Virus record (IMG/VR): IMGVR_UViG_3300029747_000004
Strand: one strand, 5' to 3'
Origin: a virus
Taxonomy: Duplodnaviria; Heunggongvirae; Uroviricota; Caudoviricetes
DNA length: 64,000 bases
Shown here: positions 1,788 to 22,859 of the stretch, in pieces
Layout of the letters: each line of letters begins with the position of its first letter
Position numbering within the stretch: position 1 is the stretch's first letter
Notes under the pieces: model-generated
The model's input: the letters and a program-made list of their open reading frames with translations, nothing else
Database searches by the model: none
What the model was told of the DNA's origin: nothing
Position numbers and translations under genes: made by a program

Positions 1788-1973
1788 TCAAAATGTTAAT
1801 TTATCTGTAAAATAAATTTTTGTGTTATCAATTTCTTCAAAATTAAGTTTTACTTTATCGTCATTAATAAACGTATATGTATTATTGATATTTGACACCA
1901 TATAAAACCCATGAGCAAGTAGGTAGGTGCTCACGGTTTTGTCTTGTGTAATAATAAAATTTTTTTTAGACAT
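1788..1973 (-). CDS. hypothetical protein
   Basis: ORF in operon context. Confidence 0.3.
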   Translation of the reverse strand: MSKKNFIITQDKTVSTYLLAHGFYMVSNINNTYTFINDDKVKLNFEEIDNTKIYFTDKLTF

Positions 1974-1999
1974 CGTGATACCTCCTTTATAAACATAAT

Positions 2000-3541
2000 T
2001 TAATTATCATTTTTATTTCCGTCACGTGTCGCTTCGCCTTCATCAGATAATGGTGCATCAGACTCTGGCCTGCCATCAGAACCATCACCATTTTCAGATA
2101 GTCCAGCACTTTGCACATTGCTTGAAACAAGCGGAGTTGCCCATGACATAGTTCCAATTCCAAGGGCATTTTCTATAAAAGACATTCCACGTTCTTTTAC
2201 CGGGTTCACATTAGTTAAGGATGCCAATTCAAGTTTAACTGGAACACTATATTGTGCAAGTTTCAATAGCTTATCCACTCTATCATCAATAAAATATGGA
2301 GAAATATCACTGTATTCAACAATCATACCAGTTTCTCCAAGATGATTTAAAATCCATAGATTTTGCCACGCATTAATCTGCTCTATAGGAGCCATCGCAT
2401 CCATAGAGTCAAATTGAAGTGCCAATTTAAAACTTGTACTATTAGTAATTTTATTTTGATTTAGAACAATACCACCATTAGCATTAATAATATTTTCATA
2501 AGCTTTAGAAATAATATTAACATCATTAGCATTATTGCTATTAAAATCTATACTATCAAGTTTCATTGGAGACATTGCTAAAGCAACGTTATCTGGAACA
2601 GCAGACTGTAATTTCTGATAAAATGCATTTGCTAAATCAAGATCAATTTCAAAATCATCAACATCTTTTGTACCAGAAATTGTATCAATTTTTGCATAAA
2701 TAAGTTTATATGCCTCTAATTTATCCTTTAAATCTTGAACCGCCTGCAAATCTGCAAGACTAATAATCCCATCAAATAATCCAGAAAGTGGCGGAACTGG
2801 ATAATCTAAGTTATCTATGTTAATCTTTAAACAGAACGTATTCTCAATAGGAAGTTCCGCCCATCTCTGCGTGTTATCACTTTTATATTTATTATACAAT
2901 TTCTTAAAAATAGGGTCGTATACATCTAAATAATAAGAATTTGTACCAGAATCAAAGAATGAGCAATCAAACGCGAAATTTAGCACACCTCTGTAATACT
3001 GCTGACTTGAAATTTTACAATAATCCGGGTCAAGCAAATGTATAAAAAACGTTCCATCTTTTTCGGGGTCGCCATAACAGAACCCGTACACAACGTCGTT
3101 CTTCCAAGCCTGAAGCATACACTTCAAAATCTGACTTTTCATATCCATATTACGTACATACTTTGTAACACGCTCATAATTCTGTAATACACTATTCTGA
3201 TCAGGATCTTCTGTAAGTGGAATATCTGGATATACCGTCCACGACTTGCAATTAATTTGATATGCTTTAAAATTAATTAACCTTCTATATACATGAGATA
3301 CCGTATATAAATAATTCGAAAGTTTCCTAAGCTGTTTCTGGTTTGATTCACTTGCAGGATTCTTCAAATATGTACGTAAGCTGTCTCTAGAATACGTAGT
3401 GTATGTAATATTTTTATTTTTTGTCAAGTCAATAAGACTAAGCACGTCCTTCACAGCGGCAAACGCAGCTCTATTCTTTTCCTCACGACTTAACGTTTCA
3501 ATACGTTCCTTGTCTGTTAATTCTTTTGCCAAACTATTCAC
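2000..3541 (-). CDS. putative portal protein
   Basis: 513 aa immediately downstream of terminase large subunit; acidic/Gly-rich C-terminal tail typical of portals. Confidence 0.5.
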   Translation of the reverse strand: MNSLAKELTDKERIETLSREEKNRAAFAAVKDVLSLIDLTKNKNITYTTYSRDSLRTYLKNPASESNQKQLRKLSNYLYTVSHVYRRLINFKAYQINCKSWTVYPDIPLTEDPDQNSVLQNYERVTKYVRNMDMKSQILKCMLQAWKNDVVYGFCYGDPEKDGTFFIHLLDPDYCKISSQQYYRGVLNFAFDCSFFDSGTNSYYLDVYDPIFKKLYNKYKSDNTQRWAELPIENTFCLKINIDNLDYPVPPLSGLFDGIISLADLQAVQDLKDKLEAYKLIYAKIDTISGTKDVDDFEIDLDLANAFYQKLQSAVPDNVALAMSPMKLDSIDFNSNNANDVNIISKAYENIINANGGIVLNQNKITNSTSFKLALQFDSMDAMAPIEQINAWQNLWILNHLGETGMIVEYSDISPYFIDDRVDKLLKLAQYSVPVKLELASLTNVNPVKERGMSFIENALGIGTMSWATPLVSSNVQSAGLSENGDGSDGRPESDAPLSDEGEATRDGNKNDN

Positions 3542-3549
3542 CGCCTTTC

Positions 3550-5577: not shown

Positions 5578-6760
5578 TCACCTGCCCATATATATCAATT
5601 AAATTTTTATCTCTTAAAAAATCTTTTAAATCCTTGTTTTCAACAAGTAGCACTCTTGCTCTTTCTACCGCCTTATCACGTTCTTTTGTAAGACTTTCAA
5701 CAAGATCTCGTCTAATACCCTGAATCTCATCCATTACATTTTCATCAAATCCGATTTGATCAATTTGTGCTTTTGCGCTAATTTCTGCAACTTGTTGCAT
5801 ACCTTTGCAATAATCAATATCGTACATATTAATTTTTGCATCTCTAAACCCAATTAGGTCTAATTCCTTCATTTTCCCGGTAAGCGTATTTTGTCCTTTG
5901 CTTTTACTATTATTGAAATTTACACTAATACCATTATCTTTTGCAAGTGCATTAGCGCCAGAAAGTAATTTAGAAACTGTATCCGCAAGTTGTTTGATAG
6001 TACCATTGTTATTATTTAATTTCATAGTATCAGACGACAAATCATCAATAGCATCATTAATTTTACTAATCTGATTAAATGATTTAACAATTTGAATAAC
6101 TGCATTCATTTTCATTCCATCATTTTTAGTTTCTTCATCAATAAAACTAACAACCTGCGCATAAAGCAAAGGTTTATCATCTTCTATTGGATAATTTGCA
6201 AAAGGGTCATAGCCTGTCATCCTAATTACGTCTTTTTTATTGGTTTTATATGCCTCGTTAACATCTTCGGTGCTAATATTTGATTGCCTATTCTCTTTTC
6301 CGACCTCAATTTTTGCCGCACTTTTTGCCTTTTCAACATATACATCAAAAATGTCACTATCCTGCCAACGTAAACCTCGATATTGAATCATTCCAATATT
6401 TTTTATATATGCATCCCAAATTGTTGTTCTACGTAATGTCTGCCCTTGATTCGCCCACTCCAAATAGCTTGAATCCCATACTTTGTTTAAAAATGGCTTA
6501 TCAAGTCTAATTAGCGCTTCTTGGATTGATGCCTTAGTACATGTACCATATTGTTGTGTGCGCTCGTCCCAATTCATTGCAATTTTCCTTGCACATTCTT
6601 TACACATTGTAGTCTTCCCCGTCATTACAAGAGGGTCTGAGCTTGTATAAAATTCTGCCGTTTTTTTCTCTTTCAAACAAAACGGGCATAAATATTTTTT
6701 GTCATCTGCGGCAGTTTTCTTTTTAGCTGCCGTTTTTTTCCCTGCACTTTTTGTAGCCAT
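5564..6760 (-). CDS. putative terminase small subunit / zinc-ribbon DNA-binding protein
   Basis: Basic N-terminus (KKTAAKKK) then CPFC...CKEC zinc ribbon; directly upstream of and overlapping terL. Confidence 0.3.
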   Translation of the reverse strand: MATKSAGKKTAAKKKTAADDKKYLCPFCLKEKKTAEFYTSSDPLVMTGKTTMCKECARKIAMNWDERTQQYGTCTKASIQEALIRLDKPFLNKVWDSSYLEWANQGQTLRRTTIWDAYIKNIGMIQYRGLRWQDSDIFDVYVEKAKSAAKIEVGKENRQSNISTEDVNEAYKTNKKDVIRMTGYDPFANYPIEDDKPLLYAQVVSFIDEETKNDGMKMNAVIQIVKSFNQISKINDAIDDLSSDTMKLNNNNGTIKQLADTVSKLLSGANALAKDNGISVNFNNSKSKGQNTLTGKMKELDLIGFRDAKINMYDIDYCKGMQQVAEISAKAQIDQIGFDENVMDEIQGIRRDLVESLTKERDKAVERARVLLVENKDLKDFLRDKNLIDIYGQVIDSD

Positions 6761-6804
6761 ATATAACTGCCACCTTTCTTGTTATTTTTTAGAAAGAAGC
6801 CCAT

Positions 6805-7026
6805 TTACTGAGCTTCCTTCTCCTTGGCAGTCTTAGCCTCTGCAATTTCCTTATTAATTCTTGCGAACTCAGTCTGAAAATGCTCATCATTCTTAAACAC
6901 TAAAACGGTCTTATCTGGATTTGTACGGTCGGGTTTTACATCAACTACCTGACAATTTGCCTTGAGAAGGGCTCGTCCAACACCCATATTAAACACCAAA
7001 CGACTTTCCTTGTTTTTATTTTCCAT
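6805..7026 (-). CDS. hypothetical protein
   Basis: 73-aa ORF with upstream RBS. Confidence 0.3.
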   Translation of the reverse strand: MENKNKESRLVFNMGVGRALLKANCQVVDVKPDRTNPDKTVLVFKNDEHFQTEFARINKEIAEAKTAKEKEAQ

Positions 7027-7086
7027 AATTCATTGCTCTCCTTTATGTTTTTCTTATTTGTATATTAAAAAATGGCGGGAAAGTTT

Positions 7087-7106
7087 CCCCGCCGTAGGTG
7101 GGACCG
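7087..7106 (-). terminator. rho-independent terminator (GGCGGG-loop-CCCGCC then U-run on minus strand)
   Basis: Plus strand shows aaaaaatGGCGGGaaagtttCCCCGCC; on the minus strand this is a hairpin followed by a T-run, 3' of GIY-YIG gene 7139..8077. Confidence 0.55.
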
Positions 7107-7138
7107 GACGTACAAATACATCAGCCACCAATATTAAA

Positions 7139-8077
7139 TTATATAGCTAATTCGTCTTTGAATCTAAAAACAAATCCATGAGTATATGGTCTTTTATAGT
7201 TGCACACTTTCGAGATCATTTTATGTCCAATCCCAGTTATTCTTTCGGCATCTCTTGCAGATAAATATTCTGCAATAAAATTCATATCTAAATCATATTG
7301 TATAACCGATTTTGTGGGTGGTCTATATCTTGTTGCGTTTGGAAAAATAATATTTTTTGTCAAATCCTTCCATATACGTTTAGCCCGAATGTCTTTAATT
7401 GTATTTACAGAAATTCCATAATCATTTGCGATATCTTTATCAAATTCAGAATTTAACATTCTCTCTATAATATTTTCAACGTCATCTTTGCTTAATTTAA
7501 TTGATGGTTTCTTTCTTTTAATAAAGTTCATATCTTTTGTAAGTTCAACATATGAAGTTTTTTCATATATCCCATATATAGTACAGGCACTTACATTAAA
7601 CATTTCCGCTATATTAACTATTGGAATATCAGTATTTACAAGATAATCGCAAACATCAACAAATTGTTCAAGCGAAAATCCACGTTTGCAATTTTGCAAA
7701 TCTTCAATTGTGGTGTAATTGGTAGGAGTTTTTGAATTTATTTTATTATGATTATAAACACATATACCGTTAGCAACATAACAATCTATCCAATATTGCT
7801 CTCTTTCAAAGATATAGTCTCTATCTCCAACAACATTTTCTATAATTAAAAAATCAAAATTATCTTGTCCGTACTTATTCCACGCATTTTGCAAATGCAA
7901 ATTATGATGTCTATCATTGTATAAATCCCAAACATGTTGCCTCCATCTTCCATATATATCTACAGAAGAACCAATATATACACTACAATTTGCTAAATTC
8001 TTAATTAAATACACACCTGAAATAACTTCTCCACTAAATCTAAAAAACTTTTTTGACATAACAATAACCTCCAACAT
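7139..8077 (-). CDS. GIY-YIG homing endonuclease
   Basis: GVYLIKNLANCSVYIGSSVDIYGRWRQHV = GIY...YIG...R motif. Confidence 0.65.
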   Translation of the reverse strand: MLEVIVMSKKFFRFSGEVISGVYLIKNLANCSVYIGSSVDIYGRWRQHVWDLYNDRHHNLHLQNAWNKYGQDNFDFLIIENVVGDRDYIFEREQYWIDCYVANGICVYNHNKINSKTPTNYTTIEDLQNCKRGFSLEQFVDVCDYLVNTDIPIVNIAEMFNVSACTIYGIYEKTSYVELTKDMNFIKRKKPSIKLSKDDVENIIERMLNSEFDKDIANDYGISVNTIKDIRAKRIWKDLTKNIIFPNATRYRPPTKSVIQYDLDMNFIAEYLSARDAERITGIGHKMISKVCNYKRPYTHGFVFRFKDELAI

Positions 8078-8101
8078 ATTTCAATTCAAATAAAAAACAA
8101 C

Positions 8102-8284
8102 CTACTTTTTAACAGACCATTGATTCAGTAAGTTATTTAATTGTTCTGTTCTAATATAAACCCAAAACATAGTTTTACTATTTGGATTTAAAGCACATAG
8201 CTCATACTTCAACCCATTTTTATATAAAAAATTTCTTAAATTCAAACTATAACAGCAATATAACTTATCCATCTTGTACCTCAT
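8102..8284 (-). CDS. small protein, paralogue of 1584..1778 product; partner ORF of HEG cassette
   Basis: 60 aa; conserved pattern shared with 1584..1778; preceded by leader motif variant. Confidence 0.45.
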   Translation of the reverse strand: MRYKMDKLYCCYSLNLRNFLYKNGLKYELCALNPNSKTMFWVYIRTEQLNNLLNQWSVKK

Positions 8285-8297
8285 TCATTTGTGCTGT

Positions 8298-9527
8298 CTA
8301 ATTTAAAATAAACTTTTCAGTTCCAACGCAACCATATTTTTTGTCAAAAATAAACATCTTACAAGCCGCTTTTGAACTTTTACCCAATTTATTGAACGCA
8401 TAAGGATCTGTTCCCTGAAATGACGGACATACTAATAGCTCCGTATCATGGCTGTCATGTTCATTGCCAGAAATAATTCTATCATTGTGAAAATGGCCAA
8501 TAAACACATAATCAATTAACTTTCTATGTTTAACACTCAAATCTTTAAGTGCCGTTTCTAAATTTTTAATTGTATGACCATGCATAGCCATAACATTAAA
8601 ATTATAAATCGGAACCTCAATATAATCATATCCGTCATTCAGATGCACAGACACTCTAGTATTGTATTTAAGCATATCTGCAATATAATGACCAATCACA
8701 TACTCCATATCCTCATGAACAAGTTCATTTGCCTTCGACCCAATTGGACGAGATTGTGAGTGATTTGACGTTGGAGTGTGGTAATAATCTATATAGCAAT
8801 ATGCTGACAATTCATTCAAAAAATTGGCAATTAACCTAGCCACGGTTACGGTTGCTTCAACAACAGGAACTTCATTCAATTTCAAATCTGTCAAACGCAA
8901 GATCCCCTGAATTGTATCAGCCAACTCAACAATATAAAACTTACTAATGTTATTAAATTGTATATATTCAACAAGCATATCAAGCAATTTATTGAATCTT
9001 TCTTCGCAGATTGATAGTGAATACTCATTTGTTTCAATCTCGAAGTTGGCCCCAGCTTGAATATCTGCAATTGTTAGCACATATTCCCTGCTATAATCTA
9101 TAAGATAATCACTATTTCCAGCAATAACTTTGGGCATTGTAAGGGTTTGGATAGCATCTCGAATATTTTCATAGAATAATTCCTCTCTACTATCAAACCT
9201 TAAGCTCCTATTGGCTTCAACTTTAGTCGCATATAACTTCTGACGTTCCTTCTCCAGCTCATACTTTGCCTTCTTTATCTCTTCAAGATATTTATCTTCA
9301 CCAACAATCTTGTCTGAGTTTGCCTCAAACACGTTCTTAAACGCCGCCCATGTTTTTCTATATGCGGATTCGGTTTTATTACACCCAAACTCGTCATTAA
9401 AAATTTGTGCCATCTGCGGCCAAGTAAAACCAAGAGTCTCTTTCATATTACAAACTCTATAAAAATACTGATCTTCACTCTCATTTTCCATACGCTTTAA
9501 GTTTTCATCCATGCTTATCACCATCAC
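8298..9527 (-). CDS. metallophosphoesterase-like protein
   Basis: C-terminal HGHT ... IGHFHNDR ... GNEHDSHD His/Asp clusters resembling the calcineurin-like phosphoesterase fold; N-terminal ~120 aa of unknown function. Confidence 0.4.
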   Translation of the reverse strand: MMVISMDENLKRMENESEDQYFYRVCNMKETLGFTWPQMAQIFNDEFGCNKTESAYRKTWAAFKNVFEANSDKIVGEDKYLEEIKKAKYELEKERQKLYATKVEANRSLRFDSREELFYENIRDAIQTLTMPKVIAGNSDYLIDYSREYVLTIADIQAGANFEIETNEYSLSICEERFNKLLDMLVEYIQFNNISKFYIVELADTIQGILRLTDLKLNEVPVVEATVTVARLIANFLNELSAYCYIDYYHTPTSNHSQSRPIGSKANELVHEDMEYVIGHYIADMLKYNTRVSVHLNDGYDYIEVPIYNFNVMAMHGHTIKNLETALKDLSVKHRKLIDYVFIGHFHNDRIISGNEHDSHDTELLVCPSFQGTDPYAFNKLGKSSKAACKMFIFDKKYGCVGTEKFILN

Positions 9528-9897
9528 TTTTTCTCGCTTTTTCTATTTTTTTTAATTTTTTACTTTTCTTTTTGTTAATTTTCTTTCTAAATGCTGGACT
9601 AAATTTTGCATATGGAATGAATTTTGCAGGTGTTATAACTTTTTCTTGTGTTCTTGGGTCTCTTGCTTCATGTTCTGGAGAATATCTACCACCAAACACA
9701 AACCCAAGAGAAAGACGAATTTCTGACGGTTTATCTTTTTTCGCTGTGCTCATATTCTCAACAATTATTTCGTCGAGCGCATCAAGCACCGTCTCCATAT
9801 TATGTATATAAAAATTTGTTTTCTCAGCTAATAGCCTCGATAACTCATATTTCGTTAACACTCTTTCCATATCTTTTTGCTCCTTCTTAGCAGCCAT
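9505..9897 (-). CDS. HU/IHF-family DNA-binding protein
   Basis: RLSLGFVFGGRYSPEHEARDPRTQEKVITPAKFIPYAKFSPAFRKKI parallels the HU beta-arm consensus GFGxFxxRxRxARxGRNPxTGExIxIxAxxVPxFKxG. Confidence 0.55.
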   Translation of the reverse strand: MAAKKEQKDMERVLTKYELSRLLAEKTNFYIHNMETVLDALDEIIVENMSTAKKDKPSEIRLSLGFVFGGRYSPEHEARDPRTQEKVITPAKFIPYAKFSPAFRKKINKKKSKKLKKIEKARKSDGDKHG

Positions 9898-10075
9898 TAT
9901 TCGTAATCCTCGTCATAGTTGACGCTAAGTTTTACCGTCTTATCCGCAAAATCTTCTAGCAAATCCTTAAGATCAATAAGCTCTCCGGTATCTATATTTT
10001 CAATTGCAATAGTACCATCTTCAATAGAAAGAATACCTTTTGCATTTAATGCATATTTGCGTGTAATATTTGCCA
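9898..10075 (-). CDS. small hypothetical protein (59 aa, MANITRKYALNAKG...)
   Basis: ATG with GGAGG RBS directly 3' of leader motif; not in the supplied ORF track (<60 aa). Confidence 0.3.
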
Positions 10076-10186
10076 TAATTTTGTACCTCCATGCTGTCTA
10101 TTCATTTTGTATTGTCGGGCGACATGCTATATATTCGACACGTCGCCCAGTATATCCTGTATAATTTATGTTAAATTTATATTATA

Positions 10187-10897
10187 TTATTCAACAAATT
10201 CATCCGCATGTCTACTGATCCAACCTCTATGGTTAATAGTCAAATGGCATACTATGGACCTTTCTTCTCCCTCAAAATGCTTAATGTATCTAGTGAATCC
10301 ACTTTCAGACGGATTTGGAAGGTCACACTGTAAGTCATGCCCAATTACAACAACTTTAGAATTATCACAAACTCTCGTTAATGTCTTTTTCAACTGGGGC
10401 GTCATATAATTCTGAGCCTCGTCTAACAATATTACCTTACCGTCTAAGTTTGTGCCACGAAGATATGTATCTGTAATACAAGTAATATATCCAGTGCCAT
10501 TCTTTTGATTTACCATGCTTTCATCATTAATTGCAGTATTTGGATTAATATTGCAATTAATCAAAGCCTGATAAAATGCCTCAAAATAAACAGAGCTCTT
10601 TTCAGTAATAGAACCAGGAAGCCATCCCTGCTTACGTTCACCATAAGGTGCCATGATATATACAATGCCATCATAAAATCCATACTGGACAAGAAGGTTA
10701 GCAACCCCTGTTGCTACAGTTGTTTTTCCGCAACCAGATTTTGCATTACACCATATAATATCATAATCTGGACTCCAAATAGCATTAGCAAACTTCAACT
10801 GTTCGGGATCCAACTTCATTCCATAAAAATTGGTATTATCTATAGCTCTTGGAGCTTCACCATAGTATTCCTGTTGAACTTTTTTCTTAGCCGCCAT
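10187..10897 (-). CDS. phoH: PhoH-like ATPase
   Basis: Walker A AKSGCGKTTVA, Walker B VILLDEAQN; 236 aa typical of phage PhoH. Confidence 0.75.
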   Translation of the reverse strand: MAAKKKVQQEYYGEAPRAIDNTNFYGMKLDPEQLKFANAIWSPDYDIIWCNAKSGCGKTTVATGVANLLVQYGFYDGIVYIMAPYGERKQGWLPGSITEKSSVYFEAFYQALINCNINPNTAINDESMVNQKNGTGYITCITDTYLRGTNLDGKVILLDEAQNYMTPQLKKTLTRVCDNSKVVVIGHDLQCDLPNPSESGFTRYIKHFEGEERSIVCHLTINHRGWISRHADEFVE

Positions 10898-10911
10898 ATG
10901 CTACCTCCGTA

Positions 10912-11538
10912 TTAAAATAGTTCATCTAAACTCTCAACAATTTTATCAATAACGCCATTTTCTAGCGCCTCATCCTCATCCATAAACCAATCAACTGTTG
11001 CCTTTCGCTTAAAAATCTTCGAGTCAATTTTTGTCTTACTCATTAAATGGTCAACAGTTTTCTTCGAAAGCTTATCAAAGTACTTCTTTGTAGATTCTAC
11101 TTGATCTGCCTGTCCAGAATACGCACATGAACCTGAATGTACCATAACATGAGAACCTTTAAGTCCAAGTCTAACATGGCCAGATGCAAGAATCTCCGCT
11201 GCGGCACTATATGCCGTGCAATAATTGATAGTCCATACTGGCGTTTTGCTAATTTCAATCATGTTAATAATACTCCACATAAACACAGCATCACCACCAC
11301 AACTATCAATAAAGATCTTAATTGGCCGTCTCTCCTGTATTGGAATATCCTTGTCATCTTTGTTGCAGCGCAAAATCATTTCAATTAAGTCCTGAGCACA
11401 ATCTTCAACACCATCGTTTAGCCAAAAAATCCTATCTTGTTCATCTCTATAGAGATTTCTTAAAGTTGGGTCAGGTAACTGTAAATTCGCTACATTTTCT
11501 GGTACTCCGATTAATACATTATTCAGCATATTATCCAT
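10912..11538 (-). CDS. clpP: ClpP-family serine protease (possible prohead protease)
   Basis: IDSCGGDAVFMWSIINMI...YCTAYSAAAEILASG...SHVMVHS aligns with the ClpP core INSPGGVITAGMSIYDTM...CMGQAASMGAFLL...SRVMIHQ. Confidence 0.75.
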   Translation of the reverse strand: MDNMLNNVLIGVPENVANLQLPDPTLRNLYRDEQDRIFWLNDGVEDCAQDLIEMILRCNKDDKDIPIQERRPIKIFIDSCGGDAVFMWSIINMIEISKTPVWTINYCTAYSAAAEILASGHVRLGLKGSHVMVHSGSCAYSGQADQVESTKKYFDKLSKKTVDHLMSKTKIDSKIFKRKATVDWFMDEDEALENGVIDKIVESLDELF

Positions 11539-11658
11539 ATTTGTTGTTCCTCGCTTTCATTGATTCTGTATAAAATTAATAGGGAATATCTATGCAATAT
11601 TCCCTTTTCAATATATGTATTTTTAATGCCAATTTCAAAAATACTAATAAATTACTAT

Positions 11659-12390
11659 TCATTTTGTATTGTCTACATTGTTTTCGCCATTTCTACCGAT
11701 AGCAAATTTCTGTGTTTTGTTATATTTTTTATTACATTCTTGGCACCTGCAAGTTTTTGTATCCTTACTTGTTACAATAAATTCTTGACCACAATCTATA
11801 CAAACTACGACTCTTTTTGTATGTTTATGATATATCGAACAATAGTCACAATACTTACGTTTTTTTCTATGCTTGGGCTTCTTTGACGCATCCTTTTTAT
11901 CACGTTGTAACATATTTGTTTCTTTTTCAAAATAAGCACCGCATTTTTGACATTGTAAAATATTTTCATCTCCATTATCAAATTTATCTTTAAACAATTC
12001 AATTGACTTTTGTATTCTATTTTTATTTTTTGTTTCTAACATAGAGTTGGTTCGTTTTATAACACCAACATCTGTAATATTAAATGATTCACCACCTGGA
12101 GAAATATTGTACCCATAATTTGAATTAGTTGTATTAAATAAAGCGATCAATCTAATTTCCCAAACTTTTGCCTCATTTTCTGTTAAATTTTTTGACCAAA
12201 TAATATGCTCGAAATTATCCCATCCATATTTTTGAATAGCACTCCAAAATAGTCTCTGTTGAATATATCCCTTGCCATTTTGCCACCTTCTATTTGGATC
12301 ATCTCCATAGGCCGTAATTCCAATATATGCCTTATTATTAATTATATTTCTATGAATATAAACACAATAATTATCACCTATTTCCATCAT
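11659..12390 (-). CDS. GIY-YIG homing endonuclease with C-terminal zinc fingers
   Basis: YCVYIHRNIINNKAYIGITA...RRWQNGKGY; Cys pairs at C-terminus. Confidence 0.6.
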   Translation of the reverse strand: MMEIGDNYCVYIHRNIINNKAYIGITAYGDDPNRRWQNGKGYIQQRLFWSAIQKYGWDNFEHIIWSKNLTENEAKVWEIRLIALFNTTNSNYGYNISPGGESFNITDVGVIKRTNSMLETKNKNRIQKSIELFKDKFDNGDENILQCQKCGAYFEKETNMLQRDKKDASKKPKHRKKRKYCDYCSIYHKHTKRVVVCIDCGQEFIVTSKDTKTCRCQECNKKYNKTQKFAIGRNGENNVDNTK

Positions 12391-13366
12391 GTTTTCTCTT
12401 CCATTCTCTTTTACTCAATTTATTAGCCTCATGTTGACAATACTCACATCTATATGTTGTATTATTTTTATAATCGTTAATATAAACCACCTCACCACAA
12501 TCAACACATATAATCTTCTTTGGCTCATAGTCTAACGTATATTCGTCTTTATCTTTATACTTCGGCTCATATTTTGGAACACACGTTCTACAATATAACG
12601 AATTATTATTTTGCTCATTCATATTAATGTTTTTGCCAATAACATTACCTCTAACTTTAAATAATTTACCGCAGTTCTTACATTTCTTGTATCCTCCACC
12701 ATTTTTCCAATTTAAATAAGTAAATGCAAGCTCATAATAACTTGATTCATCAAGTTCTAGCACTACAGGGTCATTTTCATCATTAGAAATATAATCAATG
12801 CGTTTACTCGTATCGTCATTCTTGTAATTCAAGTGAATAAGTGCCGCTGGTTCTCCATTAATTAACTCATTAATAAAATAATCTCTTTCTTTTGATGGAA
12901 TAGTAACATGTGCCATCTTAAACACGGTAATATCACTTTCATTCTCCCAATGTGTCGGTTCCCTACGAGACATATCCATGAACTTAGCAATTGCTAAATA
13001 ACAAAATAATAATTTTTCTTTCTTAATATCGTTGAAGGACACGATATATTCCAATTCACTTTTTCTGATTTTTATAGTGTCTACAATATTTCTCCAGGGC
13101 ATATCTTTCATTTTCTTAATATAACTCTTTATAGTCTTTGCATACGCGGATAGGTGAAACATATTTGTCCTTTTATTCATCCAATCCTCAACATAGGCAA
13201 TAATCACTTGTTCGTCTGTTGAGATGTTATAATATGCGTCCCAAATTAAATTAAATAGAATAGATGGAATAGTTGCCTTGTTAACTGGGGCATCTAATAC
13301 CACATCGATTCTTCTTCTTGTGTTAAAATAATAATTAAACTTCTCCATGGCTTTCTCCCCCAACAT
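12374..13366 (-). CDS. hypothetical protein with multiple zinc-ribbon motifs
   Basis: CKNCGK...CRTC and CVDCG...CEYC pairs; immediately upstream of the putative RNAP gene. Confidence 0.35.
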   Translation of the reverse strand: MLGEKAMEKFNYYFNTRRRIDVVLDAPVNKATIPSILFNLIWDAYYNISTDEQVIIAYVEDWMNKRTNMFHLSAYAKTIKSYIKKMKDMPWRNIVDTIKIRKSELEYIVSFNDIKKEKLLFCYLAIAKFMDMSRREPTHWENESDITVFKMAHVTIPSKERDYFINELINGEPAALIHLNYKNDDTSKRIDYISNDENDPVVLELDESSYYELAFTYLNWKNGGGYKKCKNCGKLFKVRGNVIGKNINMNEQNNNSLYCRTCVPKYEPKYKDKDEYTLDYEPKKIICVDCGEVVYINDYKNNTTYRCEYCQHEANKLSKREWKRKHDGNR

Positions 13367-16088
13367 AAATATTTTTCATTTTAAATTTCTTACGACAGCA
13401 ACTAAACTCATCATCATCTTCAATAACTGCCTCTGGATACTCTATTATGTAATTTGCTTTGTACAATAAATTATCTACAATTACATCTCCGCACATATCC
13501 CAAACGACACCTTTAGCATTCGGCTTATCATATAACAAGTCAATTAATATATCACAAAGCACTTTCTCGTTAGAGCATACCTCGTAAAATCTACCCTTAA
13601 AAATCAAATCAATAATTGATTTATCTGCTGCACCATCCTCTTCCTCAGTTACCTCGTCAGTTTTTGTCTTTTTAACAAGATTAACAATACTTGCTTTATA
13701 TTCATCGTAAACATCTCTCACCTTATAAAAATCAACGCCACTATACTCAACGCCAGATTTTATAAGTTCCTTATCAAATTTTACTTGCGGTAAACAATTA
13801 AAATCATTAAATTTCTTGTCAACAGCCCATGCAATACGATTTACAGTACCTGGGGACATATCAACTGGGCATCTATTATAAAAAATCTCACGTTCTTTTA
13901 ATAGCTCGTCCGTCAAATTCTCACTTGTAAGCAGTTCATCTAACGAAATATGATATTTTTGCTTAAGCTTTGAGTCAACCCTTTTCACATAGCTGTCGTA
14001 CTGTGTTTTTGTGGTGTTATATCTATAAATAAAGAAAAATGGCTTTCTATAAGCACAAATTCTCTTATTAAACTCCTTTTCAAGCGTAATTTCATCACTA
14101 TCTTGAGCATTTGGCAGACATTGAGATAAATTATTCCATTGCGTATTCATTGGAGTCATCTTAATTCCTTTTACAGAATCAATACTTAGCTGCTGAAAAT
14201 GTTGAATACAGATAGTTCTATACTCCAATTCGTCCCATTCTTTACTACCAATTTCAAATTTTGACTGTAAGTTTAACATACTAGTACCAATGTTAGTGAT
14301 AGATCCGACCTTGTTCTTAAATCCTCGTTTATTACTTGCTGCAATATTTTCTTCTGTAGGAAGTATCTTTGGAGCTTTTCTCTGCTGACAGTCAAGTGCT
14401 GGCAGCAACCTGTGCTTTTCAACAAGAATTTTACTGTTCGTAGTAAAAATTATGTCTCCATCTTCATCGCAGCCAGATTCAGCTATGCGTAAAGTATCCC
14501 ATGAATTAAGAATGATACAATCTTTTATATACCTAAACCAGTAATCCGCACTAGCAGAATATTTAATTTTTTGCTTCACTATGTTGAAATGAGCACACAT
14601 TGGGGATCTCATGCACACAACTTCTGAAACATGTTTGTCTCTCCAAAATTTATGATAAATCTCACCAGCGCCCAACAAACCTTGAACTTTTAATCCAAAA
14701 ATATCTTCACACATTGCATATGGATCACCAGAAATAAGAGCAAAATTACCAGAAACGTCAATTGTTGAAATCTTGGCAAGCCGAATTTTCTTACGAATCA
14801 TACGCTCAATTCTTGAACGAACATATGGATCATTAATTAACTCTCTATTTATCATTAAAGCACGCGCAATTACATCAGATTTCATAACATTTTTATCATT
14901 CAACCCCGTCCCAGCAAGATAAACAATTGATTTTCTTGGATCAAGCGCAATAATATCTTGAATTTCTTCAACGGTGGGTGAGATTAACTCATCAATATCC
15001 TCGTCACTCAAATAATAACTTTGAGTAAACTGATAATTCAAATTTCTACTCTCATCAAGCTCTTCGGACACCTTTGTAAGCCTAAAATCATACCCATGTT
15101 TAATACAATTTTCATAATACGACTCATAACTATCATATGCATCCCATAATTTTAGCTGACTTGTGGTAATAATTACGTCTGCATCCATTACGTTACGCTC
15201 TTGCCCCCATGCGTCAATCACTGTAGTTTTATTAGCAATAGTTTTTGCAAATTCCTTAAAATCAAACGTGAATAACATTCCTTTTAAAAATGCACAACGT
15301 GCGCACACCCCAGAAGAAATTTCGTCAAGTCCAATAGCTTCTTTTGTGATTTTTTGGCTATATTCTGGAGTCATAATTCCGCAACCATCATTTATTTCAA
15401 TTTCAATGCTCTTACCTTTGACTTCGCGCACAATTGGATCATTAGAGTTAATCCCGTCACTAACCTCAATAACATCTGCATCGAATGAAGTATTTGTCCC
15501 CCTAACAACAATCATTTTAGGCCAAGAAACTGCATTAGATGTTGATGATGTAAGCGCAAAATATGCTTCAAGTTTGGCAGGAGTATACTCTATTTTTTCA
15601 TTCCTGCCATTATTAATCATCTTATATACAGACGGATACAACTTTGAATTAATGAATAGCACCGTACTCATTTTTAACCCGCCTGGAGTGCCATATAATC
15701 TATGAAATAGCTCCCCATTAATGATTAAACTTTTGCAACAATTATCAAAATGAGACTTTTTGTCAAACTGAATGGACACTAAATTTGGCTCAAATTGTAG
15801 GCTATACAACTCATCATATTTACTTTTAATACTTTTCTTATTTTCTCTGGTATCATCAAGAGTTTTTAAATACTTTATTTCCTTTCGCACCTGTTCCGCT
15901 TTTAAATAGTTATCACCGGTGCCTGTCATATCTTCAATCCATTTAATTAACTGACTATGACCAACGCTGATCACTATTTCAGAATTACAAGCTATATCAC
16001 TTAATGAAATATTAACATTGTAATTATTCATGTCCAAATAAGTGCTATTCAACTTGTATATATACTTTTGTGGTCTTAATGGTTTCAA
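13335..16088 (-). CDS. putative single-subunit two-barrel RNA polymerase (YonO/QDE-1-like), TTG start
   Basis: 917 aa; ESGCDEDGDIIFTT carries a DxDGD signature like the catalytic NADFDGD/DYDGD of double-psi beta-barrel RNAPs; no other recognisable motif; inference. Confidence 0.45.
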   Translation of the reverse strand: MKPLRPQKYIYKLNSTYLDMNNYNVNISLSDIACNSEIVISVGHSQLIKWIEDMTGTGDNYLKAEQVRKEIKYLKTLDDTRENKKSIKSKYDELYSLQFEPNLVSIQFDKKSHFDNCCKSLIINGELFHRLYGTPGGLKMSTVLFINSKLYPSVYKMINNGRNEKIEYTPAKLEAYFALTSSTSNAVSWPKMIVVRGTNTSFDADVIEVSDGINSNDPIVREVKGKSIEIEINDGCGIMTPEYSQKITKEAIGLDEISSGVCARCAFLKGMLFTFDFKEFAKTIANKTTVIDAWGQERNVMDADVIITTSQLKLWDAYDSYESYYENCIKHGYDFRLTKVSEELDESRNLNYQFTQSYYLSDEDIDELISPTVEEIQDIIALDPRKSIVYLAGTGLNDKNVMKSDVIARALMINRELINDPYVRSRIERMIRKKIRLAKISTIDVSGNFALISGDPYAMCEDIFGLKVQGLLGAGEIYHKFWRDKHVSEVVCMRSPMCAHFNIVKQKIKYSASADYWFRYIKDCIILNSWDTLRIAESGCDEDGDIIFTTNSKILVEKHRLLPALDCQQRKAPKILPTEENIAASNKRGFKNKVGSITNIGTSMLNLQSKFEIGSKEWDELEYRTICIQHFQQLSIDSVKGIKMTPMNTQWNNLSQCLPNAQDSDEITLEKEFNKRICAYRKPFFFIYRYNTTKTQYDSYVKRVDSKLKQKYHISLDELLTSENLTDELLKEREIFYNRCPVDMSPGTVNRIAWAVDKKFNDFNCLPQVKFDKELIKSGVEYSGVDFYKVRDVYDEYKASIVNLVKKTKTDEVTEEEDGAADKSIIDLIFKGRFYEVCSNEKVLCDILIDLLYDKPNAKGVVWDMCGDVIVDNLLYKANYIIEYPEAVIEDDDEFSCCRKKFKMKNIYVGGESHGEV

Positions 16089-16105
16089 TACACATCACCG
16101 CCAAT

Positions 16106-16705
16106 TCATTTTGTACTACCTATTTTTTCTTCACACGTAAATCCGCATAACTCTTTAGCTCTTTGCTGTACCATATCCCATATTTTACAATTATCAAACT
16201 TCGAATTTAAATATTTCTTAAGCTTTTCTGGTTCTAATTTATGTCTAGATGTTTCACTAACGCATGGCGGTCCAGGCATCCCACAATGATTAACACAATG
16301 TTCCCAAAAATCAGTTTTGCATTTATAGCGAAAATCTGTAACCCACAAACTATCATAGTGTATAAAAATATGAACCTTCGAAGAAATATTAAAAGACGCA
16401 TGGAGTATTTTGCCCTTATATGTTTCCGCGTTTCCATACTTAAAATCCCATCTATCGGCAAAGCCACCATCAATCATCTCATGCCCTTTACCTGCTGGCG
16501 CATTGCCATCATACATATCTCTTGTGTAATTTTGGAATGCATTATATGTTGCGAAGATCTCATCATCACTTAACTTCTTCATTGCTTTCACCATCCATCT
16601 TGGCACCGCACTTTGGACAATAATCACTCGCACGAGCTTCTTCGTCAAAACAATTAGAACAAATATATGTCGGTCGTAAAAACGAATCATCTCCGACAAA
16701 TTCAA
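16106..16705 (-). CDS. hypothetical protein
   Basis: ORF in leftward operon. Confidence 0.35.
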   Translation of the reverse strand: MNLSEMIRFYDRHIFVLIVLTKKLVRVIIVQSAVPRWMVKAMKKLSDDEIFATYNAFQNYTRDMYDGNAPAGKGHEMIDGGFADRWDFKYGNAETYKGKILHASFNISSKVHIFIHYDSLWVTDFRYKCKTDFWEHCVNHCGMPGPPCVSETSRHKLEPEKLKKYLNSKFDNCKIWDMVQQRAKELCGFTCEEKIGSTK

Positions 16706-16928
16706 CTATACCGCAACCTTCAAGCCATTCCGCATGAATTACTGGTTTAAGTTCGTGATGGCACACATGCATTCCATCATAAAAGTTATTATCAAAAGTG
16801 CATTTAAACTTTGGTGGAAGTGAAGTATAACACTGCCCATCATTAAAAGGACAATTTCCACAAGTTCGCTCACCAAAAACATTTAAGATCAAAACAATAC
16901 TCATCCTCGTCACCACCACATTGCCCAA
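16566..16928 (-). CDS. hypothetical zinc-ribbon protein
   Basis: CGNCP...CxxxxxC and CSNC...CPKCG pairs. Confidence 0.35.
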   Translation of the reverse strand: MGNVVVTRMSIVLILNVFGERTCGNCPFNDGQCYTSLPPKFKCTFDNNFYDGMHVCHHELKPVIHAEWLEGCGIVEFVGDDSFLRPTYICSNCFDEEARASDYCPKCGAKMDGESNEEVK

Positions 16929-17314
16929 AAAACTTTACTCAAAACCTTAAAAAGATCATCCTTAGCCACATCTCTCTTTTCACAATCATAAAAATCATCA
17001 CTTGTTAAAATAATTCTACAATCTCTAATCATTCTTTTAATGCACTGCATTTGAGTCATGCGACGGCCATCCACATCAAACGTATGCCATTTGGGATCGT
17101 CCATCACGATAATTTTACTTACATTGTCTTCAAAATATCTAAGCCGTTCGTAGAGCCACATAATTAGTGTTGTATCCATATTAAACGTGTCACGACTATC
17201 GAAATCTGGATAATCCTTTTCACCATATGGAAATGGGAACCTGCCATTTGGAAAAATTTCACGTAGATATTTATGTTTCATGTATTTAACATCTCCTTGA
17301 ACTTTATAATGCAT
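16910..17314 (-). CDS. hypothetical protein
   Basis: ORF in operon. Confidence 0.35.
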   Translation of the reverse strand: MHYKVQGDVKYMKHKYLREIFPNGRFPFPYGEKDYPDFDSRDTFNMDTTLIMWLYERLRYFEDNVSKIIVMDDPKWHTFDVDGRRMTQMQCIKRMIRDCRIILTSDDFYDCEKRDVAKDDLFKVLSKVFWAMWW

Positions 17315-17742
17315 TTATCAAGCTCCACATTAAATTCTTCTTGTGTAATTTCTTCATCAAAAAACACAGGTTTACCATCTTTGATATTAAAATACACAGT
17401 GCCACAAGAACATGGTGCAAATTCATCTATATCATCCTGGCAATATCTTTCACATGGAAATTTTGGATCATGCAAAAATACTGCAGGAAACAGGTTTTCT
17501 TCATAACGCTCTCCACTAAGCATCAAAAGAGTTCTTGGTGTACCAATAATTTTTACAATGCTACCTAAGTCAGACTTATAGCACTTTCCAACAAATTTAC
17601 GTGCTAATTCTTTATTTACTTCTCGCTCTTTATTTTTAAGTTCTCGCACAATATTTTTAAGCCTGCTAATTTCATCATTAATTTCTTTAAGCGTCATCCT
17701 CTTCATCCTCCGAACAATCCTGAAATGCGCATTCCATAGCAC
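17278..17742 (-). CDS. hypothetical protein (N-terminal coiled coil)
   Basis: ORF in operon. Confidence 0.35.
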   Translation of the reverse strand: MLWNAHFRIVRRMKRMTLKEINDEISRLKNIVRELKNKEREVNKELARKFVGKCYKSDLGSIVKIIGTPRTLLMLSGERYEENLFPAVFLHDPKFPCERYCQDDIDEFAPCSCGTVYFNIKDGKPVFFDEEITQEEFNVELDKCIIKFKEMLNT

Positions 17743-17899
17743 ACATAAATTCGTTCTCTAGCCAGTATAAATAACTATCCTCGTCATATGGCATGTTTCT
17801 GGACTTTCTAAACTCAATCCACGCCTCAATAATGTCATAACAAAAACAGTCCATTGCGATGTAATTAGTAAAAATATTATTCATAAAAACTTCCTCCAT
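17687..17899 (-). CDS. hypothetical acidic protein
   Basis: ORF. Confidence 0.3.
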   Translation of the reverse strand: MEEVFMNNIFTNYIAMDCFCYDIIEAWIEFRKSRNMPYDEDSYLYWLENEFMCAMECAFQDCSEDEEDDA

Positions 17900-18074
17900 C
17901 AGTTAAACTCTAGACTTAGTAATATATCCGCATTTTGTGCAACGCCAACGGTCAATAGATTTGCACGGTCTGTCTTCATTTTTGCGAAAATAGTTCGCTT
18001 TTCCAAGGTATTCCCATTCATGTTTACAAAAGCATGAACGAATGTAGTTAATAACCCATCTCATACAACCACCT

Positions 18075-18257
18075 CTAATCTAATTTGTTAATGCTTAGAA
18101 TAATAGCCTTTGGAACCTCGCTTGTAACCTTCGAAATAATAAATTTAAGAAGATCTTCGCCTCTTAACTCACTATAAATAAGGCTATTACCGAAATAAAT
18201 TCCAAGTTCATTGTATGTCCAAGAAACGAAATACGCATGTGTTTTCTTCATATACAT
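18075..18257 (-). CDS. hypothetical protein
   Basis: ORF. Confidence 0.3.
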   Translation of the reverse strand: MYMKKTHAYFVSWTYNELGIYFGNSLIYSELRGEDLLKFIISKVTSEVPKAIILSINKLD

Positions 18258-18572
18258 CCATCACCAAAACCATTTAATATCATCAGGGTCTCCAATATAC
18301 TCTTCAACATAAAATATCTTAAGCCATGGGAATTTGTTCTTAAAATATTCTCTTGCTTCTTTTTTACTATTTGCTCGCACCGCATACGGAGTAGTAATTG
18401 GTGAGCTCCGATAATCTGCAGTAATCATGAATATTTTCATGTAAAAACTCCTTACTGTTACAGTGTATGTTTTTGCGCAAAAACCGCCAATTTGATTCTA
18501 CCCTTACAATTTATCATCTCACATAGAAAAACGCGAAATTGGTGTAATTTTCTAGATTATTAATCTATATTT

Positions 18573-18869
18573 TTAACGCTTACGCTTCTCTCTTGCATCC
18601 GCAAGTCTCTTAGCCGCAGCTTCGCGCTGTTCATCAGTCATTTCCCTTGTGCGAGGAGGACTAAGCTTAAACCAATTCTTAGGTACGTGTGCCACAATAT
18701 ATCCATCATTATTTTCTGGATACGTAGTGATTTCAACATCATCTGGATTAGATTCTTTTAGTTTTAGAATCTTATTTACCCATTTTCGTTCGCACGTACA
18801 AAAAACGGCATAATCATCAACATCCAAAAAATCAAAGCTTGTTTCCTTAAAGTCTGCCATTAACATCAC
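18573..18869 (-). CDS. hypothetical protein
   Basis: ORF; leader motif upstream at ~18876. Confidence 0.35.
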   Translation of the reverse strand: MMLMADFKETSFDFLDVDDYAVFCTCERKWVNKILKLKESNPDDVEITTYPENNDGYIVAHVPKNWFKLSPPRTREMTDEQREAAAKRLADAREKRKR

Positions 18870-18878
18870 TCCTACAAT

Positions 18879-19313
18879 TCATTTTGTACTGTCAAATTTG
18901 CTCCTAACAAATTCAACGCTGCTAGACTTAATGTCTTTGTAATAATAATTACTACCGTTAACTGCAAATTTACCACCAGCAAAGTAGATCACTGCTTCAT
19001 GATAACCACCGCCATAACTGCGCATCTTTACAATATCATGTTCAAAAAGAAGTTTACCATTTTTGTCTTTGACACCAGTGCTACGACAAACTGTTTCTGG
19101 GTCAACCTCAACATATTCAAGAAGTGGCTCGAATCCCCAATCACAAAAACCATCACGGACAATATAGTGCCTAGTTTTAGGGTCATCTGATGAGAAACAA
19201 ACTTTTACCGCATCATGTTTTACATAATACCCATAAACCCATTCGCCGCTATCAATGCACTTACCCCGAAATAAAATCTCGTTTTCCATATGGTTGAAAG
19301 TACCCCCTGTCAT
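18879..19313 (-). CDS. hypothetical protein
   Basis: ORF. Confidence 0.35.
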   Translation of the reverse strand: MTGGTFNHMENEILFRGKCIDSGEWVYGYYVKHDAVKVCFSSDDPKTRHYIVRDGFCDWGFEPLLEYVEVDPETVCRSTGVKDKNGKLLFEHDIVKMRSYGGGYHEAVIYFAGGKFAVNGSNYYYKDIKSSSVEFVRSKFDSTK

Positions 19314-19440
19314 AGAATGCGGTTGTGATTGTTTATGTCATACAATGCCATAAAGATCAAAACAAGAATCATAATACAGTAAACCCAATTCATTTAAATG
19401 GCCTCCATTCATTTTGTATTACCTGTATCTAGTATAGCAC

Positions 19441-19757
19441 CAAATTTTGGAAATGTCAAGAGGGTAATTCAATTCCCCCTACAACCCCTTTATATTATTA
19501 TTTAATATATACTATGTAGTTTATATATAATACACTATATAGTTTATATATATTATTTAAATAAATAAATAAATAAATATAAAATATATAAACAATACGA
19601 GTTATATACGTAGTATATAACGAGTAAGAGGATAAATACGTAGTATTTATACGATAACCTAATGTAATATCTATTGTAATAATACTAATGTAATATAGTA
19701 TACTGAGTATACTTTGGTTAGTATAACCAGTATATTTTGGTATGTATACTGAGTATA
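19441..19757. repeat. AT-rich repeat region with near-palindromic GTATACTGAGTATA / GTATAACCAGTATA units and (AAAT)n; candidate origin or operator array
   Basis: Direct reading: TATACTGAGTATA x2 flank GTATAACCAGTATA; TATACG-AGTATATAACGAGTA repeats; no ORF. Confidence 0.5.
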
Positions 19758-20340: not shown

Positions 20341-20499
20341 ATCTAGAATTCTTATACGGACTCTTTACCAGGTTAATTTCTCCTTTTCATTTTGTACTAC
20401 CATAGGCGCTGTAATTATATCACAGGATTTGGCGCTTGTCAATATAGACTTGAGTGTAATGTTTTTGAATGTAAAATCGTTTTTTGTGGCTTGCCTTGG

Positions 20500-22058: not shown

Positions 22059-22859
22059 ATGAATAAAACTACTTTCAACACCATTGGCGCTGAGATGATT
22101 GAGAACCGTCTCACCAAGTCCACCCTTGACCTTGATATGCTCACTAGCTATGAGCGCAAGAGCTATATCTCTATCTGTGATGAGATTGCCGACTCTGCCT
22201 ATGCCCTCATGTCTAGCAATAACCATGACAACTTCCCTGCATTCCGTTCTGCCCTGCACAAGCTGTTTACCTTTGTGGAGACCGAAACCCGCATTCTGTC
22301 CCTTGACGCATATTCCCTGCGCTTCATCCCTGCCGTTGTGCCCTATAAGACTTTCAAGTCTAAGGCGTACAAAGACGCTGAAAAGGCTATTCGTGTATTC
22401 AAAAATGCTATGGAATGGGCTTGTGAAGTGTCCAATGTGGATATGACCAACGACGAAGGCGAACTGTTCCCGAATGCAAAGGACTGCGTCCAATTCCAGA
22501 CCGAATACTATTCTGCCGACGTGCAGGATAGCTATAACGCCATTGTCGGAATGTTTGTAGCTAACAATGCGCTCAAAGTATCCGACTTGAAGGCTCACCT
22601 TCAGACTCTCGAAGACGCAAGGGACGACCTTGCAAAAGTTCCGGGCAATTTCTATAACGACTTCAAAGACCCTATGAAGTCCAGCACCGGTAAGCGTCTT
22701 TCTCATGCGCCTGAATCTGTTCGCAAGGGCATTGAGGACGCAATGGCAGACCTTCTTGCCCAGCGTGAACTCATGACCAGTGCCCAGCTCGACAAAGAAG
22801 AAGCCCAGATTGTCGGCGGTAAGAAGCAGGCAAAGCAGGCGAAGTCTGCCAACAAGTAA
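22059..22859 (+). CDS. hypothetical protein (GC-rich gene, strong RBS)
   Basis: AGGAGGAATAACC-ATG; 266 aa; first gene of the rightward block in a compositional island. Confidence 0.5.
   Translation: MNKTTFNTIGAEMIENRLTKSTLDLDMLTSYERKSYISICDEIADSAYALMSSNNHDNFPAFRSALHKLFTFVETETRILSLDAYSLRFIPAVVPYKTFKSKAYKDAEKAIRVFKNAMEWACEVSNVDMTNDEGELFPNAKDCVQFQTEYYSADVQDSYNAIVGMFVANNALKVSDLKAHLQTLEDARDDLAKVPGNFYNDFKDPMKSSTGKRLSHAPESVRKGIEDAMADLLAQRELMTSAQLDKEEAQIVGGKKQAKQAKSANK

Follow-up and report, generated by a model that had tools for sequence, protein, structure and literature searches.

A predicted YonO-family single-chain RNA polymerase in a large uncultured gut phage organised like SPbeta

In this study, we analysed a 64,000-nt stretch of phage DNA (Duplodnaviria, Caudoviricetes; IMG/VR record IMGVR_UViG_3300029747_000004), which is called the window below, and in particular the open reading frame (ORF) 13335..16088 on its minus strand. 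From sequence comparison and a predicted structure, we believe that this ORF encodes a real single-chain two-barrel (double-psi beta-barrel) RNA polymerase of the family of YonO, the polymerase of the Bacillus phage SPbeta. We consider it likely that the enzyme is DNA-dependent, that it is expressed early through host sigma-A promoters, and that it transcribes the late genes. An initial annotation of the same DNA had proposed a YonO/QDE-1-like single-subunit RNA polymerase from one short motif, and this inference proved right.

Assignment of the polymerase to the YonO family

The motif in question is the segment ESGCDEDGDIIF, residues 537–548 of the 917-aa product (nt 14445..14480). When the whole product was searched against the databases, 675 proteins were matched at E ≤ 1e-3, and the best 120 of these 675 were 69–99% identical to it and were encoded on metagenomic contigs of up to 173 kb. 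An exhaustive HMMER search returned 1453 clusters (50% identity) at E ≤ 1e-3, with 381 at E ≤ 1e-30. This number of protein and cluster matches indicates that the ORF is not a chance reading frame. The Pfam family RdRP (PF05183) was matched over residues 118–572 at E = 1e-14, with 54.6 bits against a cut-off of 23.8, and most of the database homologues already carry the label PF05183. Because Pfam labels the family in this way, the identification of the polymerase will not surprise specialists. In PHROGs, the polymerase fell only into families of unknown function. Profile searches had been named as a check in the initial annotation, and their outcome agreed with it: the RdRP match lies above the curated cut-off, and no profile of Pfam or PHROGs placed the protein in an unrelated family.

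YonO-like genes have been noted in phages of Firmicutes since 2003–2010. BLASTP of the polymerase against SPbeta YonO gave a direct similarity at E = 3e-24 over residues 119–496, with approximately 28% identity over approximately 400 residues, whereas the remainder aligned weakly. In tblastn searches of phage genomes, the Clostridium phage c-st was matched over the full length at 36% identity, Enterocloster phages at 37%, the Bacillus phage BUCT082 at 29%, and yonO of SPbeta and its relatives at 30% (E approximately 1e-18, with 8e-18 for YonO itself). The long-form YonO-like genes of c-st, the Enterocloster phages (PMBT24 and CB4xx) and BUCT082 were 29–37% identical to that of the window over 85–99% of the length. 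The similarity in size to YonO claimed earlier was also found (917 versus 839 aa), but the figure of approximately 800 aa given for YonO was too low. A sequence search of the PDB gave no match, and solved structures were reached by fold comparison alone. The 20 kb around the gene had no close DNA match in the phage collection, and Rfam had no match inside or adjoining the gene.

Ruprich-Robert and Thuriaux described eight residues that are common to all two-barrel RNA polymerases, which in Qde1 are D709, R738, K743, R962, P964, D1007, D1009, and D1011 (PMC2919709). Their counterparts in the window polymerase are D234, R264, K269, R494, P496, D541, D543, and D545, with matching spacings. In a conservation alignment of 84 family members, which were 24–84% identical to the query, the invariant columns included D234, K269, R494, P496, D541, D543, and D545, and R264 was conserved in at least 90% of the sequences. 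The conserved residues line up with TDGCG, VRLPWVKG, RSP, and DNDGD of YonO, and the DEDGD of the window polymerase aligns with DNDGD of YonO and DFDGD of PMBT24. The DxDGD metal-binding loop had been recognised correctly; its three aspartates are invariant and equivalent to Qde1 D1007/D1009/D1011. However, it is not the only signature of the protein, as had been assumed, because D234, R264, K269, R494, and P496 are conserved too.

The AlphaFold (AF2) model of the polymerase, which was built on the 84-member alignment, was confident, with a mean pLDDT of 92.5 and a pTM of 0.88. Structure prediction was the other check proposed at the start, and it also supported the identification: in a global fold comparison with Foldseek, the best solved structures were maize and Arabidopsis RDR2 (7W82, 7ROZ) and Neurospora QDE-1 (2J7N), with E values from 4e-18 to 1e-14, a probability of 1.00, alignments spanning approximately 900 columns, and TM values of 0.4–0.5. 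The next matches were the Thermus phage polymerases P32 gp64 and P74 gp62, and every match at E ≤ 1e-3 was RDR2, QDE-1 or one of these two. The weaker matches were mostly subunits of multisubunit RNA polymerases at noise level. Among viral models, the best structure matches were phage proteins labelled RdRP. QDE-1 and RDR2 match the window polymerase over nearly the full length and share with it the Pfam family and the eight-residue constellation, but they are only 12–15% identical to it in structural alignments, and they are eukaryotic RNA-acting silencing enzymes (QDE-1 also acts on single-stranded DNA) instead of phage transcriptases. By every sequence and structure criterion that we applied, the predicted polymerase belongs to the YonO branch.

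Interrupted polymerase genes were observed in c-st and in the CB4xx phages, which differ in this respect from the window. The YonO-like gene of c-st (locus 6995-10104) is annotated as two ORFs, the first of which ends ...NGMDMDK in the catalytic loop, so that the break lies inside DxDGD, and coding resumes approximately 370 nt later. In the Enterocloster CB phages, the polymerase lies in two to three pieces across approximately 3.4 kb, compared with 2.3 kb in PMBT24. PHROGs and the metagenome also contain separate N-terminal halves of the polymerase, which end near residue 540, and separate C-terminal halves. The split genes suggest introns or other insertions at active-site codons.

Expression, repeated element and rival explanations

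Studies have shown that SPbeta YonO is a strict DNA-dependent, processive RNA polymerase, which is expressed on induction, and that 37 late SPbeta genes need it (PMC5467207). In both phages, the polymerase gene lies ahead of the genes for HU, YonJ, YonG, terminase, and portal, and its operon is preceded by a sigma-A-type promoter carrying a repeated operator element. On the basis of this orthology and synteny with YonO, a role in late transcription was assigned to the window polymerase. Sigma-A promoters were scored over the 12 positions of TTGACA-17-TATAAT, and a score of at least 11/12 was regarded as near-consensus. The window has thirteen near-consensus promoters, twelve of which are co-oriented with genes. 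Two of them, at 20442 and 19459 on the minus strand, head the leftward block. From 19459 down to 11605, this strand showed no terminator-like site; host polymerase could thus plausibly reach the polymerase and partner genes. In 1..19400, no sigma-A promoter scoring at least 11/12 was found on either strand, and matches of 10/12 below 19.4 kb were no commoner than in shuffled sequence. This absence is what would be expected if the late genes relied on the phage polymerase.

In the mechanism that we propose, host sigma-A RNA polymerase would transcribe the polymerase gene early, starting at the two near-consensus promoters 20442 and 19459. Like PyonP in SPbeta, both promoters would carry an operator resembling SPBRE, the MrpR operator of that phage, on which the MrpR-like repressor of the window phage would act. 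The operon would extend as far as the hairpin at 11605..11581, and the polymerase would be made together with a translationally coupled zinc-ribbon partner, which is a possible cofactor, and would then transcribe the downstream late structural genes, which have no strong host-type promoters.

Two non-coding stretches are of interest in this connection. SPbeta has a 1.7 kb non-coding stretch with P(YonO) between yonN and yonK. The published primer-extension primers place the YonO start within approximately 60356-60573 of the SPbeta record, inside this stretch (in coordinates of the SPbeta locus, 10356-10573 within the non-coding 9153-10833 on the minus strand), and the SPBc2 record and the published reverse primer disagree at one base of an A-run. 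In the window, a conserved non-coding block follows the polymerase operon (11581-11672, minus strand), and it is found at 13747-13870 in the metagenomic relative L002. The order in the block is the repeated element, approximately 50 nt, a hairpin with identical stems AGGGAATAT / ATATTCCCT, TTTTATACA(A/G)A, and the next gene. The block is terminator-like, yet by analogy with SPbeta it would be sited where a late promoter is expected.

The repeated element is the 17-mer ACAATACAAAATGAATG. When up to 3 mismatches were allowed, 28 copies were counted in the window, compared with an expected 1.03, and almost all of them point with the genes. The element sits 12–27 nt ahead of start codons, in many cases over the stop codon of the preceding gene. 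The initial annotation had taken this invariant upstream element as evidence for dedicated promoters of the polymerase, but the element was found to mark host-type promoters. All 12 gene-oriented near-consensus sigma-A promoters carry it (ten good copies and two degenerate ones), either 1–19 nt past the -10 or embedded between the -35 and the -10, where the element forms the -35 plus spacer, e.g., TTGACAATACAAAATGAATGatgTATAAT. In addition, 12 of the 25 good copies (48%) adjoin a promoter of at least 10/12, compared with 3.6% of random positions. As a translation enhancer in its sole role, the element was rejected, because one copy precedes a tRNA gene and four lie in promoters far from any ribosome-binding site.

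The closest known system to the repeated element, though not to the polymerase, is SPBRE/MrpR (YopR) of SPbeta (Kohm et al. 2023, PMC10516654). SPBRE has been shown experimentally to be the MrpR operator, and ten promoters are MrpR ChAP-seq targets (PMC10516654); we recovered SPBRE sites in SPbeta at exactly these ten promoters. Judged by eye, the SPBRE consensus ACAAATACAAAWAATATGTATA shares its 5' half and the ATG with the window element, ACAA(A)TACAAA...ATG, whereas the 3' half differs. An ungapped comparison of the element with the yonO region of SPbeta gave no match, and the likeness surfaced once the SPBRE sites had been located. The AT-rich window element and SPBRE are also placed alike with respect to sigma-A promoters and ribosome-binding sites, in two arrangements, e.g., TAGACAAATACAAATAATATGTATATAAT at PyonP, which drives the yonP-yonO operon. 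They differ in number, with at least 25 copies in the 64 kb of the window versus approximately 11–12 in the 134 kb of SPbeta, and about half of the window copies lie at gene junctions without a recognisable sigma-A promoter nearby. The window also encodes an MrpR homologue, which matched SPbeta YopR in BLASTP at E = 1.4e-14 and Pfam MrpR_N_CB with 41.1 bits against a cut-off of 27, and this protein is the probable binder of the element. Since the element is present at all twelve promoters, resembles SPBRE in sequence and geometry, and is accompanied by an encoded MrpR homologue, it is best read as an SPBRE-like operator that would gate promoters used early by the host polymerase, among them the ones ahead of the polymerase gene. 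Tied in this way to sigma-A promoters, it gives no good evidence for dedicated polymerase promoters. The element may also have a second role.

The same enzyme might instead use the 17-mer as its own promoter, in the style of T7-type polymerases, and transcribe most of the genome instead of the late genes only. The abundance and co-orientation of the copies speak for this, and so do the copies at gene junctions that have no sigma-A promoter nearby; one copy lies 36 nt ahead of a tRNA gene, which shows that the element is not purely a translation signal. Moreover, relatives with 69–78% identical polymerases have retained the element core ACAATACAAAAT, and degenerate copies stand just after the terminator-like hairpin, ahead of the first gene beyond it, in L002 as well as in the window. 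However, the link of the element with sigma-A promoters, SPBRE, and MrpR argues for an operator, and the element does not define transcription units independently of host-type promoters, as a T7-like element would. Copies are few in the late module (two in 10 kb) and closely spaced in the replication module. In SPbeta, the loss of YonO silences 37 late genes only (PMC5467207), and the ten genes marked by SPBRE do not appear to belong to this late cluster. We consider the use of the 17-mer as a polymerase promoter to be unlikely.

We also considered whether the protein could be an RNA-dependent RNA polymerase that copies phage or host transcripts, for example, into dsRNA or antisense RNA for regulation or counter-defence. 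The Pfam family name RdRP points in this direction, together with the eukaryotic RNA-dependent enzymes among the best solved-structure matches and the ability of QDE-1 to take RNA and DNA templates (PDB entry titles). In contrast, YonO, which is the only characterised bacterial or phage member, strongly prefers DNA templates and is far closer to the window polymerase (28% identity in BLASTP versus 12–15% in structural alignments), and the conserved position of the gene ahead of a structural module without host promoters fits a transcriptase. RNA-dependent synthesis is, in our opinion, very improbable. Some phage RNA polymerases also prime replication, and the polymerase gene lies within an early operon, so that the enzyme might mainly make primers or origin transcripts for phage DNA replication instead of mRNA. 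Because a separate primase and a DnaB-like helicase are encoded in the window, and because the gene is linked to the packaging/structural module and not to the replication module in every relative examined, we give this explanation hardly any credit.

Several points weigh against the model of a DNA-dependent, early expressed YonO-family enzyme for the late genes. The barrels were assigned from the global fold match, and the closest solved structures are RNA-dependent enzymes. We infer the late-gene regulon from gene order and the lack of strong host-type promoters, and the preference for DNA templates from YonO alone, at 28% identity over approximately 400 residues. The window yielded neither a promoter specific to the polymerase nor a transcription start site, and nothing like the P(YonO) region of SPbeta was seen. 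Finally, no homologue of the zinc-ribbon partner was found in SPbeta.

The zinc-ribbon partner

The initial annotation had placed a zinc-ribbon gene upstream of the polymerase gene. On the coding strand, this gene in fact lies directly downstream and overlaps the 3' end of the polymerase gene. Its likely true start is ATG 13348, after GGGGGAGA, which gives an overlap of 14 nt with the polymerase stop, and homologues of the protein begin at a matching MEKFNYYF. The Cys4 of the partner, C229/C232/C259/C262, is invariant among the homologues, and its body is weakly winged-helix-like. A partner homologue was found directly after the polymerase gene in the metagenomic relatives L002 and L004, c-st (CST177, E = 4e-13), PMBT24 (E = 5e-7), BUCT082 (HMM E = 3e-11), the Thomasclavelia phage TR-TP1 (1e-6), and the faecal contig MT835481 (1.5e-5). 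In the lineage L118, whose polymerase is 27% identical to that of the window, the partner is encoded two genes downstream (E = 2e-16). Altogether, the partner follows YonO-like genes in nine sampled lineages, usually immediately, and the polymerases of these lineages are 23–78% identical to the window's. In a tenth lineage (P0207), polymerase and partner are fused into a single 1173-aa chain, which was found on five contigs; three of the loci were retrieved, each from a separate sequencing run. In c-st, PMBT24, and BUCT082, as in the window, the partner homologue is followed by an HU gene after one or more others. The partners of c-st, the Enterocloster phages, and BUCT082 differ from that of the window in being shorter (240–278 aa) and in having a single zinc ribbon, where that of the window has two.

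Whether YonO requires additional factors was not settled by Forrest et al. We speculated that the partner may be a dedicated subunit or an initiation/specificity factor of the long-form YonO-type polymerases. The gene overlap, the pairing in nine lineages, the fusion in the tenth, the invariant Cys4, and the weakly winged-helix-like body make the case for this assignment, which we put forward tentatively. SPbeta is without the separate partner gene that the lineage of the window has, and the partner is therefore not universally required. SPbeta YonO ends in a Cys4 zinc ribbon and a basic tail, whereas the window polymerase shows an FSCC remnant only. The C-terminus of the window polymerase, EFSCCRKKFK, lines up by eye with YonO FKGCCICGKAFK, which points to a degenerate ribbon within the polymerase itself. 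The idea that the C-terminal ribbon and tail of YonO are a remnant of the partner was dropped on this account; the pairwise matches were also weak (E 0.005–0.5), and the partner HMM did not recover YonO. If the partner is indeed such a factor, it would form with the polymerase a minimal two-component, two-barrel transcription machine and provide a concrete candidate factor.

Genome context and significance

The window is composed of a leftward block (1 to approximately 21 kb) and a rightward block (22–64 kb). According to Pfam and PHROG matches, the polymerase gene is followed in transcription order by the zinc-ribbon gene, a GIY-YIG homing endonuclease, ClpP, PhoH, an HU-like protein, a YonJ-like exonuclease, a second GIY-YIG gene, a YonG-like gene, a terminase-like gene, and the portal gene (Table 1). 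BLASTP against SPbeta proteins also matched YonF (E = 5e-8) and YoqD. In the relatives, the Pfam domains YonJ, YonG, and YonD occur in the same order, with an HU gene, downstream of the polymerase. The rightward block encodes a tyrosine integrase, the MrpR/YopR homologue, an Ant/YoqD-like anti-repressor, Sak4, DnaB, a primase, HNH endonucleases, and six tRNAs. A 99% identical polymerase is encoded on IMG/VR contigs of 132–168 kb. The source phage is an uncultured gut phage of approximately 155–168 kb organised like SPbeta, and from this layout and these contigs we regard it as a distant uncultured relative of SPbeta.

Table 1. Coordinates of the features discussed in the text, given as positions in the window.
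Feature	Coordinates	Strand	Basis or remark
Polymerase ORF	13335..16088	minus	predicted YonO-family single-subunit two-barrel RNA polymerase gene, 917 aa, TTG start
Shine-Dalgarno-like GGCGGTGA	16095..16102	minus	read from sequence; 6 nt ahead of TTG 16088..16086
Asp triad D541-E-D543-G-D545, predicted catalytic/metal-binding, beta-prime-like barrel	14454..14468	minus	alignment, Qde1 correspondence
R494-S-P496, invariant Arg and Pro of two-barrel polymerases	14601..14609	minus	aligns with YonO RSP, Qde1 R962/P964
Beta-like barrel segment with D234, R264, K269	15282..15389	minus	aligns with YonO TDGCG...VRLPWVKG
Zinc-ribbon partner	12374..13366	minus	directly downstream of polymerase gene, overlapping its end
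Sigma-A-type promoter heading leftward early operon	20414..20442	minus	TTGACA-17-TATAAT, 12/12; degenerate element copy 13 nt past -10
Second sigma-A-type promoter	19431..19459	minus	TTGACA-17-TATACT, 11/12; element begins 8 nt past -10
Element copy GTAATACAAAATGAATG, SPBRE-like	19406..19422	minus	downstream of 19459 promoter
Degenerate element GTAGTACAAAATGAATT	16103..16119	minus	4 mismatches; over stop of preceding gene, abuts polymerase ribosome-binding site
Terminator-like hairpin AGGGAATAT...ATATTCCCT with T-rich tail, polymerase-operon end	11581..11605	minus	stem conserved at the same place in relative L002
MrpR/YopR-like repressor homologue, tyrosine-recombinase-like	39435..40361	plus	likely start ATG 39447
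Presumed late module	2000..9897	minus	Pfam and PHROG matches, BLASTP to SPbeta proteins
HU/YonN-like gene	9505..9897	minus	Pfam/PHROG
YonJ-like exonuclease	8298..9527	minus	BLASTP SPbeta YonJ, E = 4e-69
YonG-like gene	5564..6760	minus	BLASTP SPbeta YonG, E = 1e-11
Terminase-like gene	3550..5577	minus	Pfam/PHROG
Portal gene	2000..3541	minus	Pfam/PHROG

Other features of the window were also observed. Homing-endonuclease genes lie at 622-1542, 7139-8077, and 11659-12390 on the minus strand and at 43419-44564, 51560-52327, and 53833-54597 on the plus strand; the set comprises three GIY-YIG genes, two paralogous HNH genes that share the repeats D6 and D16, and one further homing-endonuclease-like ORF. 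The relative L002 lacks the GIY-YIG gene (11659..12390), ClpP, and PhoH at the equivalent position. A drum RNA (Rfam, 59.1 bits against a gathering score of 43) was found at 53183-53294 on the plus strand, within the six-tRNA cluster 50989-57439. Rfam also gave a 122-nt tRNA-like match at 57082-57203, which is absent from the ARAGORN calls and is possibly an interrupted tRNA. The 522-aa protein encoded at 55276-56844 (plus strand) adjoins the tRNA/drum RNA cluster and matched DUF2828, DUF7788, weakly vWA, and PHROG 850 'RNA-binding protein'. Three tandem copies of approximately 23–24 nt, TTTTAACCACCAATGTGTTGAGG..., lie at 48646-48720 (plus strand) in the gap after the DnaB-like helicase gene and before the sigma-A-type promoter 48888, and they could be iterons of a replication origin. 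The region at approximately 22000-24500 has 46% G+C, compared with approximately 34% in the phage, and has long ORFs on both strands, none of which matched Pfam or PHROG; plus-strand coding is favoured there because the end of the ORF 22059..22859 coincides exactly with a copy of the repeated element. In L002, another junction repeat, ATAAAAATAGAGTTTTAAGAGGT, followed by approximately 5–7 nt and ATG, stands before eleven small genes that lie upstream of the polymerase gene (2040-7460), and stereotyped gene junctions seem to be common in this phage group.

YonO-type enzymes are the simplest known relatives of the cellular RNA polymerases, and that of SPbeta is the only one studied. In the literature that we searched, the widely conserved and sometimes fused partner protein appears to be undescribed, and the same appears to be true of YonO, MrpR, and SPBRE-like elements occurring together in large gut phages. 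As practical leads, the partner is offered as a candidate polymerase cofactor and the non-coding block 11581..11672 as a place to look for a promoter of the polymerase. The co-occurrence of a YonO module, an MrpR-type repressor, and a repeated operator in large uncultured gut phages indicates that the regulatory layout of SPbeta extends well beyond Bacillus.

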